A stretch of 64,000 bases of DNA from Rhodospirillaceae bacterium. Its GTDB lineage: Bacteria > Pseudomonadota > Alphaproteobacteria > Rhodospirillales > UBA2165. The stretch's first letter is position 1, and every line of letters starts with the position of its first letter. Below, piece after piece: positions 32,446 through 36,176 of this stretch. Position numbers and translations under genes: made by a program. A model generated the notes under the pieces. That model saw only the letters and a program-made list of their open reading frames with translations. It had not been told where the DNA came from and searched no databases. The stretch spans positions 8,128-72,127 of the forward strand of contig CANIGJ010000003.1 in assembly GCA_947467145.1 (NCBI GenBank), read 5' to 3'.

Positions 32446-32982
32446 TTAGCGCGGCGCAAACACCATCGTCATCTGACGGCCTTCCATACGGGGGAAGGCT
32501 TCGACCTTGGCGAGCAGGTTCAGATCGACCTGGACGCGTTCGAGAACTTTCGCGCCGATTTCCTGGTGCGCCATTTCGCGGCCACGGAAACGCAAGGTTA
32601 CTTTCACCTTGTCGCCTTCTTCGAGGAAGCGATGGATCGCCTTCATCTTGACCTGGTAATCGTGCTCGTCGATGCCCGGGCGCATCTTGATCTCTTTGAC
32701 CTCGATGACCTTCTGCTTCTTGCGAGCCTCGTTCTTACGCTTCTGCTCTTCATATTTGAATTTGCCGAAGTCGAGAATTTTGGCGACCGGCGGATCCGAA
32801 TTGGGCACGATCTCGACGAGGTCGAGGCCGGCGGCTTCGGCGCGGCTCAGCGCATCGCTGATGGTAACGACACCGACATTCGAGCCATCGGCATCGATCA
32901 GGCGCACTTCGGGCACTCTGATGTCGGTATTGATATTGGGCCCGTCCTTGGAGGGGCCGGCATTCATGGGTGGACGAGGGAT
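32446..32982 (-). CDS. infC: translation initiation factor IF-3, probable AUC start
   Basis: IF-3 motifs ([37 protein letters not shown]). Start extended from ATG 32967 to the in-frame ATC 32982-32980. That ATC lies 8 nt after AAGGAG and directly after an in-frame TAG. Confidence 0.9.
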
Positions 32983-33101
32983 CTAGGCAACTCCTTATGG
33001 GCCCCCGCTACCGCCAAGGACCGCTGCACTTGAGTTGCATGCGACCATTTCCTGGGCGGAAACGAAGGACTTCTCCTTACTGATTAACGCAGGCTCTGGG
33101 T

Positions 33102-35015
33102 TTACATACCGGGGGCCCGCGCTTCGTTAATGAGTGTAGCCAGGGCGGCGTCCAAGGCAAGAAATTCTTGCTTTTCGCCACCCAGACGGCGCATCGCGAC
33201 CTTCTTTTCCTCGGCTTCCCGGCCGCCGACGACGAGGATGACCGGCACTTTGGCCAAGGAATGCTCGCGCACCTTGTAGTTGATCTTCTCGTTGCGCAGG
33301 TCCCCCTCGGCCCGGAGCCCGGCGGCCTGGAGCATCTCGACGACCTCTTCGGCATAGCCGTTGGCGGCATCTGTGATCGTGGCGACCACGATCTGGCGGG
33401 GCGCCAGCCAGAGCGGGAATTTGCCCGCGTAATGCTCGATCAGGATGCCGATGAAGCGTTCGAAAGAGCCCAAAATGGCGCGGTGCAGCATGACCGGGCG
33501 GTGTTTCGCGCCATCTTCGCCGATATAGACCGCATCCAAGCGTTCGGGTAGGACGAAATCGACCTGCAAGGTGCCGCATTGCCAATCGCGCCCGATGGCG
33601 TCGCGCAGCACGAATTCGAGCTTCGGTCCGTAGAACGCACCTTCGCCCGGATTGGGGATCGGGTCGATGCCGGCCGCATGGGCGGCGTCTAGAAGTGCGC
33701 GCTCGGCCTTGTCCCAGGTTTCGTCCGTACCGGCGCGCACGGCGGGCCGATCGGAAAACTTGATCGCGAAGGACTCGAAGCCGAGGTCTTTATAGATCGA
33801 GGACAACAGATCGATGAATTTCTTCGTCTCGACCTCGATCTGGTTCTCGGTGCAGAAGATATGCGCATCGTCCTGCGTGAAGGCGCGCACGCGCATCAGG
33901 CCGTGCAGCGCGCCCGACGGTTCGTTGCGATGGCACGAGCCGAACTCGGCCATGCGCAGCGGCAGATCGCGATAGCTCTTGATACCCTGGCGGAAGATCT
34001 GCACATGGCAGGGACAGTTCATCGGCTTGACCGCCAAGGTGCGGTCTTCGGATTCCGACGTGAACATGTGCTGGCCGAATTTTTCCCAATGGCCGGACGC
34101 TTCCCACAGGCTGCGATCGACCAATTGCGGCGTTTTCACTTCGATATAGCCCGTGCGCTCCAGTCGGCGGCGCATATAGGCTTCGAGCGAGCGATAGATG
34201 CTCCAGCCACTCTGATGCCAGAAGGCCGAGCCCGGTGCTTCTTCCTGGAAATGGAACAGATCCATCTCGCGGCCGATGCGACGATGATCGCGCTTCTCGG
34301 CCTCTTCGAGCATCTCGAGATAAGCGGCGAGTTGTTTCGTGTCCGGCCACGCCGTCGCATAGATGCGCTGCAGCTGCGCCTTGGTGGAATCGCCGCGCCA
34401 ATAGGCACCGGCCAGCTTCATCAGCTTGAAGGCTTTCGGCAGTTTGCCTGTGCTCGGCAGATGCGGCCCGCGGCACAGATCGGTCCAGTCACCCTGCTTA
34501 TAGATGGTGATCGTTTCCGTGCCGGGCAGATCCTGAATGATCTCGGCTTTGTAATCCTCGCCGACGCCTTTGAAATAGTTGATCGCGTCATTGCGATCCC
34601 ACACTTCGCGCACGATCGGCAGATCGCGGTCGATGATCTCGGCCATGCGCTTTTCGATCTTTTCGAAATCATCCGTCGAGAACGGTTCAGCGCGGGCGAA
34701 ATCGTAATAGAAGCCATTGTCGATGGCCGGGCCGATCGTCACCTGCGTGCCCGGAAACAATTCCTGCACCGCCTGCGCCATCACGTGCGCCGCATCGTGA
34801 CGCAACAGTTCGAGCGCGTCGGCATCCTTGGTCGTGACGACGGAGAAATTGACGTCATGATCGATCTCGCGTTTGAGATCGCGCATCTCGCCATCGATGC
34901 GCACCGCCAGCGCCGCCTTAACGAGGCCCGGCCCGATATCGGCCGCGACATCCAGGCCCGTGACCGGGCGGTCGTATTGCCGAACTTTGCCGTCGGGGAG
35001 TGTTACTGCAACCAT
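33102..35015 (-). CDS. thrS: threonine--tRNA ligase
   Basis: TGS-domain start [11 protein letters not shown] and class II motifs ([41 protein letters not shown]). The track start TTG 35033 is replaced by ATG 35015. Confidence 0.95.
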
Positions 35016-35042
35016 CGAAGTTGTCCTGATCAATAAGCCGCT

Positions 35043-35083
35043 AAAACGAAAAAACCCTCCTGCCGGAGCGAGGAGGGCTGTGA
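35043..35083 (-). terminator. thrS attenuator: terminator hairpin plus overlapping antiterminator strand
   Basis: Minus strand: CCCTCCT (35077-35071) pairs with AGGAGGG (35061-35055), then TTTTTTCGTTTT (35054-35043). UCACAGCCCUCC (35083-35072) can instead pair with 35021-35010. Confidence 0.7.
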
Positions 35084-35109
35084 GTTCCGCTATCTACGCG
35101 CGCCGAACG

Positions 35110-35169
35110 TCACGGCCCCCAAAAGGTGGTCGCGGTGGTGGTCGCAGTGGTAGAGGCACTCTTATGCAT
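35110..35169 (-). CDS. Thr-rich leader peptide (19 aa) of thrS
   Basis: ATG 35169: MHKSASTTATTTATTFWGP, stop TGA 35112-35110. Seven Thr codons within nine consecutive codons. It corresponds to the last 19 codons of track ORF 35110..35310. Confidence 0.6.
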   Translation of the reverse strand: MHKSASTTATTTATTFWGP

Positions 35170-35176
35170 GGCCGGA

Positions 35177-35205
35177 TATATGGGAAATCCTGGCCGTACT
35201 GTCAA
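35177..35205 (-). promoter_or_regulatory. sigma70-like promoter of the thrS leader
   Basis: Minus strand: TTGACA (35205-35200), 17 nt, CATATA (35182-35177). The -10 element ends 7 nt before the leader AUG. Confidence 0.5.
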
Positions 35206-36176
35206 GAAGTTGCGCTGTTTTGCGGGATCGCGGCCAGTACCTCGTCGAGGCGGATCTGGGTCAGATCGTCGCGGCGCAGCACGGCCACGCGGGCCCCGCG
35301 CGGCGCGCACAGCGCCGGATCGGACGCCTTGGAGAACAGCACGACCGTCGGGCAGCTCATGGCGGCGGCAATGTGCATGGGGCCGGTATCGTTGCCGATG
35401 GCGAACTCCGCCTCGCGGGCCAGGGCAAACAAGTCGGATAGATCGGTTTCACCGCACAGATTGCGCGCGCGCGGCGCCACGGCGCAGATTGCGTCGGCCA
35501 TGGCTTTTTCCGATGGGGCGCCAATGATCACGGGGGTAACCCCGCGTTGTGCGATTTGAGTGGCGAGCGCTGAATAATGCCCGATCGGCCAGCGTTTCTT
35601 AGGCCGATGGGCCGAGCCCCCGGGCACCAGCAGGGCGAACGGGCGCGGCAGCCAGAATCTCAGCGCGCTGCGGATGATCCAGGAAAAATCGGGCGGGCGC
35701 ACCTCGGCGATGCCGGCCATCGCCAGCTGGTCCTTCTGGCGCTCGACCGTATGCATAAAATCGCGCTGGGGATTGGCGTGCGGATGCGAGGCGGCCCGCG
35801 CGATGCCCGACCATTCCGGCATCGGGCCAGGCCAGAATAATCGACGATAGCCACTGCTGCGGTCCGATGTTTGTAGATCGTAGACGCGAGCGAAGGTTCC
35901 GTCCCGTAGACGACGACGTAGCGCCAGCATATCGCCGGGCCGCGTCAGCCTGGGCCTTGTGTCGACCCACACATCGTCGAACCACGGTGCGCGGCGCGCG
36001 AACTCGGCAAACGGCTGGGTGGTCAGAAGCGTGATGCGCGCACCCGCATGATGTGCGCGGATGGCGGCGAAGGGTCCGGCGGCTTGGACGAAATCGCCGA
36101 GCGCCCCCAGTTTGATGACCAGGATGTTTTGGTCAGCCAACCGTCGCGTGCTCCCGCAGGAGCTCGTTGTAAACAT
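35202..36176 (-). CDS. glycosyltransferase family 9 (LPS heptosyltransferase-like)
   Basis: 324 aa with ILVIKLGALGDFVQA and a C-terminal GNDTGPMHIAAA. The start is uncertain: ATG 36176 overlaps the upstream gene by 44 nt, and TTG 36140 is an alternative. Confidence 0.75.
   Translation of the reverse strand: MFTTSSCGSTRRLADQNILVIKLGALGDFVQAAGPFAAIRAHHAGARITLLTTQPFAEFARRAPWFDDVWVDTRPRLTRPGDMLALRRRLRDGTFARVYDLQTSDRSSGYRRLFWPGPMPEWSGIARAASHPHANPQRDFMHTVERQKDQLAMAGIAEVRPPDFSWIIRSALRFWLPRPFALLVPGGSAHRPKKRWPIGHYSALATQIAQRGVTPVIIGAPSEKAMADAICAVAPRARNLCGETDLSDLFALAREAEFAIGNDTGPMHIAAAMSCPTVVLFSKASDPALCAPRGARVAVLRRDDLTQIRLDEVLAAIPQNSATS

Follow-up and report, generated by a model that had tools for sequence, protein, structure and literature searches.

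In the 64,000-nt stretch of Rhodospirillaceae contig CANIGJ010000003.1 analyzed here (the window), the threonyl-tRNA synthetase (ThrRS) gene thrS is preceded on the minus strand by a short leader which, judged from its sequence and those of its relatives, very probably acts as a ribosome-mediated (leader-peptide) transcription attenuator setting thrS expression by the supply of charged tRNA-Thr. The expression of infC, located 3' of thrS, is possibly set by the same attenuator. An earlier reading of the window alone (the original prediction) had proposed four elements in this region, namely a promoter, an open reading frame (ORF) rich in Thr codons, an intrinsic terminator and an alternative helix; their order and minus-strand coordinates were borne out by direct reading, and the elements are kept 5' of thrS in 13 loci. 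Ribosome-mediated attenuation is a textbook mechanism class, and the present leader appears to be a well-supported and apparently undescribed case of it acting on an aminoacyl-tRNA synthetase (aaRS) gene. Its distinctive features are the probably leaderless leader and the invariant Pro-UGA-C ending.

The 13 distinct thrS loci carrying the device encode ThrS proteins that are 76-100% identical and share the gene order GT4-GT9-[leader]-thrS-infC as well as the order and spacing of the leader elements. The intergenic gap between GT9 and thrS is about 180-235 nt in the leader-bearing relatives. Seven of these loci, the window and six relatives found by ThrS protein identity alone, are independent of any DNA search pattern. 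Metagenomes were searched with the pattern TTGACA-N17-SATATA-N{55,85}-GGCCRTGAC-N{45,65}-TTTTTT, which imposes nothing on the Thr run, the terminator stem or the downstream gene. Ten loci were recovered; in each of them a Thr-rich ORF shared the frame of the UGA, the U-run was preceded by a hairpin, and thrS followed. Two other ThrS relatives, P0018 (84% identity) and P0019 (81%), came without DNA and are outside the leader comparison.

The leader ORF of the window reads ATG CAT AAG AGT GCC TCT ACC ACT GCG ACC ACC ACC GCG ACC ACC TTT TGG GGG CCG TGA, and the Thr run claimed for this 19-codon ORF, seven of nine codons, was found as described. It is the sole 9-codon window with at least six Thr codons (and also with at least seven) in the six frames of the 64-kb window, and no such Thr-rich window appeared in 100 dinucleotide shuffles. 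The leader ORFs of the 13 loci are 19-27 codons long (exactly 19 in nine of them) and contain 7-10 Thr codons, compared to 0-3 in the other frames. All four synonymous codons are used (ACC 61, ACG 29, ACT 10 and ACA 9 over the 13 leaders), while the residues around the Thr run vary from leader to leader. The last Thr codon is located 4-6 codons before the stop in every leader. Likewise, the stop is always UGA, preceded by Pro and followed by C, and Gly-Pro-UGA-C is found in 12 of the 13; the Pro codon before the UGA varies synonymously only (CCG or CCA; 35109-35118 on the minus strand of the window, and the 12 relatives). The fixed AC with a free third base, the fixed frame and the fixed distance to the stop are explained if codons are counted and would not be predicted for a pure RNA strand, so the comparison points to selection at the codon level on the Thr run.

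The promoter elements are equally constant. The 17-nt spacing between the -35 and -10 hexamers is conserved, and TTGACA-N17-[CG]ATATA was present in all six loci found by ThrS identity alone. TTGACA-N17-SATATA has one match in the 64-kb window and none in 100 shuffles. The leader ATG of the window is situated 7 nt past the -10 hexamer and has no Shine-Dalgarno (SD) sequence; in 12 of the 13 leaders the ATG is 6-10 nt past this hexamer, leaving no room for an SD. The sole member with an SD is L085 (1300-1500), in which AAGGAG is followed by a TTG start 20 nt past the -10. The SD and TTG of L085 look like a compensating solution, which argues that translation of the ORF is what selection preserves. 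These distances back the earlier suggestion of a leaderless leader, and the transcript from which the ORF is translated is probably leaderless. A simple strict sigma-70 promoter/terminator scan flagged nothing at the leader region, because the -10 has no final T and because the terminator as a plain stem has a 9-nt loop (limit 8). Since the criteria of the scanner exclude the element, the blank scan is not taken as evidence opposing it. At the other end of the leader, the thrS ATG at 35015 is 27 nt past the U-run, a distance too short for a separate thrS promoter, and thrS must therefore be transcribed through the terminator.

The terminator (segments 3 and 4), whose plain stem is CCCTCCT (35077-35071) / AGGAGGG (35061-35055) on the minus strand, was found in all 13 loci with energies of -15.5 to -21.6 kcal/mol. 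In a model-based alignment of the 13 sequences, 88.5% of the cells in the terminator columns were paired, compared to 45-63% in slid controls. The covariation score of these columns was 0.192 versus 0.122 in shuffles, and none of 500 shuffles reached 0.192. Compensatory changes are visible at pair 90/102, which is UA in five sequences, CG in four and AU in one.

The antiterminator joins segment 2 to segment 3. For this alternative helix the original prediction had given 4+6 bp with one C.A mismatch and one G.U, and this base was confirmed (GGGGGC/GCCCUC, 6 bp with one G.U, the C.A mismatch, and GUGA/UCAC, 4 bp); its extent was not, since the apical GUUC/GAAC and GC/GC pairings had been missed and the resulting three-part hairpin is longer. 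The position 35021-35010 assigned to the 5' strand was a typographical error, as UGGGGGCCGUGA lies at 35121-35110, and the range suggested for folding (35005-35095) was off through the same error. The sequence GGCC[GA]UGAC in the region of segment 2 is invariant in all 13 sequences. In the window the antiterminator is both the minimum free energy (MFE) and the centroid fold of its stretch (z = -2.47; 45% of the ensemble). When each sequence was folded alone from the G-run to the 5' arm of the terminator, a single long hairpin was obtained in 13 of 13 cases (-20.3 to -30.0 kcal/mol; z -1.2 to -3.8). A comparison of the two competing helices had been proposed, and the antiterminator proved the more stable in all 13 (-24.9 versus -18.2 kcal/mol in the window).

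Pairing in the antiterminator is maintained while its sequence changes. The apical helix differs by lineage and keeps its pairing, as GUUC/GAAC, GUCC/GGAC, CGUCCG/CGGACG, GACAUUU/AAAUGUC or ACGGAA/UUCCGU. Column pairs 52/75 and 53/74 are CG in five sequences versus UA in four and three, respectively, and the fixed-column covariation was 0.164 versus 0.110 in shuffles, a value that none of 500 reached. In an alignment-free test of cognate against chimeric halves of the inner hairpin, native halves had a mean of -9.8 kcal/mol and swapped halves of -7.9 kcal/mol, and only 19 of 20000 permutations equaled the native value. The alignment of related thrS upstream regions that had been called for thus revealed a conserved Thr-run ORF with covarying stems in 13 loci. 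The attenuation originally proposed is supported by these conserved and covarying elements, by the codon-level Thr run and by the antiterminator in 13 of 13 folds.

A third structure, a 1:2 anti-antiterminator hairpin, is probable on the basis of folding and would be present in most members. Its strands are the final Thr codons on one side and the G-run with CCGUG on the other (CNCG.CC/GG.CCGUG), and it is the MFE of the 3' part of the leader in 10 relatives. L085 forms a different 1:2-type hairpin as the MFE of its sub-sequence, giving a total of 11 of 13, and in about half of the sequences the 1:2 hairpin is the MFE of the free nascent RNA. The coordinates of all elements and the leader peptides are listed in Table 1.

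Table 1. Elements of the thrS leader in the window and leader peptides of the 13 loci
Feature	Coordinates	Strand	Sequence	Remarks
-35 hexamer	35200-35205	-	TTGACA	read directly; overlaps the GT9 TGA stop (35204-35202)
-10-like hexamer	35177-35182	-	CATATA	17 nt past the -35; GATATA in most relatives
Leader ORF	35110-35169	-	MHKSASTTATTTATTFWGP*	19 codons and UGA; ATG 35169, stop 35112-35110; orthologous ORFs in 13/13 loci
Regulatory Thr-codon run	35125-35151	-	ACC x6, ACT x1	7 of 9 codons; unique in six frames
Segment 1	35125-35134	-	CGCGACCACC	putative 5' strand of a possible anti-antiterminator/pause hairpin with segment 2; from the whole-leader MFE
Segment 2	35110-35121	-	UGGGGGCCGUGA	final leader codons and stop; 5' strand of the antiterminator base, from folding
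Antiterminator hairpin (2:3)	35073-35120	-	GGGGGC/GCCCUC, GUGA/UCAC, apical GUUC/GAAC and GC/GC	-24.9 kcal/mol
Intrinsic terminator hairpin (3:4)	35054-35078	-	GCCCUCCU.GC-UCCG-GC.AGGAGGGU	-18.2 kcal/mol; 5' arm common with the antiterminator
U-run	35043-35054	-	TTTTTTCGTTTT	T6 invariant in the 6 independently found relatives
Leader peptide, window			MHKSASTTATTTATTFWGP	13-locus list
Leader peptide, L081			MSSNKSATSTATTTTTFGRP	
Leader peptide, L082			MNTPITTTVTATATSFRGP	
Leader peptide, L083			MLTITATTTTTTTPHWEGP	
Leader peptide, L085			(L)KTNRVTTTGTTTTLTDVQGGP	
Leader peptide, L086			MIKQLTLTTTTTTTLSGGP	
Leader peptide, L087			MTHNRATSTTTTTTLHGGP	
Leader peptide, L088			MIRQLTTTTNTTNTTSTILGGP	
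Leader peptide, L090			MELKLKMMQIQTTTTTITTTPTIFGGP	
Leader peptide, L091			MYGALTTTGTTTTTTRKGP	
Leader peptide, L093			MMNNRVTTTATTTTTQEGP	
Leader peptide, L096			MTKMTAATETTTTTTMEGP	
Leader peptide, L100			MRKHTTETTTATTTPTTHGGP	

What sequence and comparison establish is which elements are present, that they are conserved and covary, that they occur exclusively with thrS, and how they are arranged; the course of events in the cell would be as follows. Transcription would start at the leader AUG or no more than about 2 nt away, and a ribosome would load on the leaderless or near-leaderless RNA, translate the ORF and trail the polymerase. With plentiful Thr-tRNA, the ribosome would pass the run of seven Thr codons, reach the Pro-UGA and cover segment 2 (GGGGGCCGUGA, 35120-35110), so that segment 3 (GCCCUCC, 35078-35072) could pair with segment 4 (GGAGGG) and transcription would terminate 27 nt before thrS. 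With scarce Thr-tRNA, through low threonine or low ThrRS activity, the ribosome would stall at the early or middle Thr codons, covering segment 1 and leaving segment 2 free. The free segment 2 would then pair with segment 3 in the -24.9 kcal/mol hairpin before segment 4 was made, the terminator would not form, and the polymerase would read into thrS.

To evaluate the geometry of this scheme, the ribosome was assumed to cover positions -12 to +15 relative to the P site, and the nascent RNA was cut off ahead of segment 4. With the ribosome placed at the stop, the nascent folds of all 13 sequences kept 0 bp of the antiterminator. Stalling at nearly all Thr codons 5' of the last two kept 6-8 bp of it, the exceptions being one further codon each in L090, L091 and L096. 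For the window itself, 35121-35110 stays uncovered when the ribosome halts at any of the first five Thr codons (35151-35136).

Several observations weigh against attenuation as described here. At equilibrium the full-length leader is found mostly as terminator plus apical hairpin, whatever part is masked by the ribosome. Because switching appears in the nascent-transcript folds and is absent at equilibrium, the switch has to be kinetic; we infer that the antiterminator must form before segment 4 is transcribed, as in classical systems. Taken as a whole, the 160-nt leader has no exceptional stability (z = -0.20), and its -10 hexamer does not end in the canonical T. Of the 13 sequences, ten came by the pattern containing the promoter, GGCCRTGAC and T6, and the conservation of those elements is independent only in the six ThrS-found loci. 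The fixed-column covariation of the antiterminator is modest, with 76.8% of cells paired, and sliding the partner by -1 scores alike (0.173 versus 0.164), because the register of the helix differs between subgroups. For the same reason, RNAalifold on a MAFFT alignment of the antiterminator gave 4 pairs only, and per-sequence folds, the chimera test and the covariance-model alignment were used instead. Finally, L086 has a weak 1:2 hairpin or none, and in the window this hairpin appears only in the whole-leader fold, not as the MFE of the sub-sequence or of the free nascent RNA.

The apical loop of the antiterminator (35094-35104 on the minus strand; A3 columns 54-62) shows more conservation than a loop would require. 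Most of the 13 sequences have a GCGYGYGU-like motif there, at a distance of 8-16 nt on the 3' side of the 1:2 hairpin, and its CGU/UGU triplets are those of tRNA-Thr anticodons. The motif could be a polymerase pause site.

This semi-conserved motif brings in a different explanation, which we consider quite improbable: an RNA switch responding to something else than a translating ribosome, for instance ThrRS protein or uncharged tRNA-Thr bound at the apical hairpin, with the ACC stretch kept only as an RNA strand pairing with the G-run. E. coli ThrRS does autoregulate through mimics of the anticodon arm, and the C-rich Thr codons here are complementary to the G-run. However, the third position of the Thr codons takes all four bases, including the ACA and ACU that would pair less well with the G-run, whereas the in-frame AC does not change; the position of the start codon is constant except in L085, which has the SD and TTG in its stead, and the UGA is in frame in 13 of 13 leaders. 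An antiterminator stabilized by the protein would moreover create a positive feedback that is hard to make sense of as regulation. The 13 loci gave no match to the T-box or to any other Rfam family: at the gathering score there was no match in the whole window nor in the 12 related loci, and at E <= 10 there was none on the thrS strand between 34900 and 35400. The Rfam scan of leader families proposed earlier therefore ended with no curated family recognizing the leader, indicating that the element is neither a T-box (RF00230) nor Thr_leader (RF00506) nor another curated leader.

Turning to distribution, ThrS was used to scan GTDB genomes, which returned at least 80 loci of 61-74% identity, 77 of them with upstream DNA and mostly alphaproteobacterial. 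Neither a Thr-rich short ORF of this family nor a covariance-model match was found among the 77 listed thrS loci with upstream DNA. In this comparison, the device occurs only in one small clade of uncultured alphaproteobacteria, many of which come from marine metagenomes. A sister group (L097, L098 and L101; 1412-1500) has a ThrS of 642 aa with 76% identity and keeps the GT4-GT9-thrS-infC synteny; it includes the complete genome CP073746.1, 'bacterium SCSIO 12827' (L101). In this group an 89-nt gap holds a TTGACA-N17-TACATT promoter and neither leader ORF nor terminator, which indicates that the attenuator was gained or lost within this lineage.

The same sister group bears on the reading of the hairpin and U-run as a plain terminator of the glycosyltransferase operon or of an independent small gene, in which case the Thr ORF and the alternative helix would be incidental and thrS would be expressed from elsewhere. 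The GT9 stop overlaps the -35, so that the hairpin is also the first terminator 3' of that operon, and the full-length equilibrium fold favors the terminator. Yet the syntenic relatives without the ORF also have no terminator in their 89-nt gap, and the terminator therefore travels with the leader rather than with GT9. The GT9 stop and the terminator are separated by a conserved promoter, the 27 nt between U-run and ATG offer no space for a thrS promoter, and the Thr ORF with its frame and stop spacing is kept in 13 of 13 loci with synonymous variation. Together these observations make a plain operon terminator very improbable indeed. There is hardly any probability, finally, that the ORF encodes a functional small Thr-rich peptide acting in trans, its linkage to thrS being genomic context: trans-acting leader peptides are known in alphaproteobacteria, such as peTrpL of S. 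meliloti (PMC7298713), and the C-terminal Gly-Pro end is conserved, but RNA segment 2 explains that end, no sequence is conserved beyond it and the Thr run, the structural competition with the terminator is conserved, and a role in trans would add to attenuation in cis, not replace it.

Among the known systems closest to the proposed attenuator is pheM-pheST of E. coli (Rfam Phe_leader), where a Phe-codon leader with terminator and antiterminator controls an aaRS operon. The two share a leader of cognate codons, the competing hairpins, an aaRS operon as target and the same gene neighborhood (thrS-infC-rpmI-rplT-pheST). The physiological logic would also be alike, since low charged tRNA-Thr, caused by low threonine or low ThrRS, would lead here to more thrS transcription. 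They differ in amino acid, gene and lineage (gammaproteobacteria), the pheM leader is SD-dependent, and there is no sequence or covariance-model similarity between them. E. coli thrL (Thr_leader, RF00506) resembles the leader in its Thr-rich peptide, its G-rich segment a few codons before the stop and its four-segment design; in contrast, it is gammaproteobacterial, regulates the biosynthetic thrABC rather than thrS, and also counts Ile codons.

The textbook controls of thrS itself are a translational operator in E. coli, based on protein-RNA mimicry at the ribosome-binding site (RBS), and the T-box in Bacillus, in which RNA senses tRNA. They act on the same gene and on the same variable, ThrRS level or tRNA-Thr charging, and involve no translated leader. 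An E. coli-type thrS operator would have no room here, as the U-run and the ATG are only 27 nt apart, with no hairpin in between. The control of thrS had been presented as unusual, and it does depart from these textbook cases; it is less unusual than was implied, with precedents at cysS and trpS in alphaproteobacteria and at thrS in Streptomyces. In Rhodobacterales, the uORFC-8-2 motif 5' of cysS, a comparative-genomics prediction, combines a Cys-codon upstream ORF with a competing intrinsic terminator (Brewer et al. 2021, PMC8632094). It is likewise an alphaproteobacterial aaRS gene with cognate codons set against a terminator, known from comparative genomics only, and it differs in codons (Cys), gene (cysS), alphaproteobacterial order and sequence. 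Streptomyces lividans has leaderless leaders 5' of thrS, alaS, trpS and leuS (Droste et al. 2021, PMC8079986). Its thrL-thrS shares with the present locus the gene, a short Thr-codon leader and a leaderless leader transcript, whereas the host is actinobacterial, the peptide (MKRVRPFLETTPGFVPAR) is unrelated, and there are two Thr codons only and, according to the authors, no clear intrinsic terminator (PMC8079986). Further cases are a His leader 5' of hisS paralogs in bacilli (PMC2965389) and a leader coding sequence 5' of trpS in Caulobacter (PMC4117421). Full-text searches of the literature turned up no description of a Thr-leader attenuator of an alphaproteobacterial thrS, although an earlier listing may exist.

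If the proposed attenuation holds, it would join the E. coli translational operator and the Bacillus T-box as a third way to regulate thrS. One essential gene would have taken a different sensor in a narrow alphaproteobacterial clade, and the syntenic sister group without the device would be an example of regulator turnover. The 13 loci provide a clean 13-member seed and a covariance model for a cis-regulatory family missing from Rfam, which would allow better annotation of these uncultured genomes. They also offer a compact natural case in which the attenuating ORF appears to be leaderless, useful for the study of transcription-translation coupling beyond enteric models. No principle of gene regulation is changed by it.

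The leaderless start and the constant ending, features commonly regarded as incidental, may both be functional, an idea that we put forward tentatively and consider rather doubtful. Leaderless, 70S-type initiation at the 5'-terminal AUG would couple the first ribosome to the polymerase from the very first nucleotides, and Gly-Pro-UGA-C would be a programmed site of slow termination, with a P-site Pro and a stop codon in weak context. The ribosome would then stay on the antiterminator strand for as long as the terminator needs to form, and GCGYGYGU might be the matching polymerase pause site. The conservation of Pro-UGA-C is expected both from the RNA requirement of segment 2 and from a slow-termination context, and the two are indistinguishable here.

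The leader is flanked, as stated in the original prediction, by a glycosyltransferase gene upstream and thrS downstream. The glycosyltransferase gene (35202-36176) is of the GT9 heptosyltransferase family, and a GT4 gene is also situated on the upstream side. The thrS gene (33102-35015, minus strand) encodes 637 aa with the domains TGS, tRNA_SAD, tRNA-synt_2b (class II core) and HGTP_anticodon, and its product is 100% identical over the full length to database protein P0001. The infC gene (32446-32967, minus strand) encodes 173 aa. Between the thrS stop and the predicted infC ATG there is a 134-nt gap (32968-33101, minus strand).

Another conserved short ORF, MERRF[FS]TAPA[CF]TTTVRT*, was observed 5' of thrS in L012 and L019 (1308-1500), which belong to the Reyranella sp. 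metagenome-assembled genome (MAG) NZ_CBDDJN010000002.1 and the MAG VGCQ01000303.1, respectively. This ORF ends 103 nt 5' of thrS, and its Thr codons ACGACCACCG are perfectly complementary to CGGUGGU, located about 4-11 nt before the thrS AUG. From this complementarity, it may be a translational Thr leader of independent origin that sequesters the RBS.

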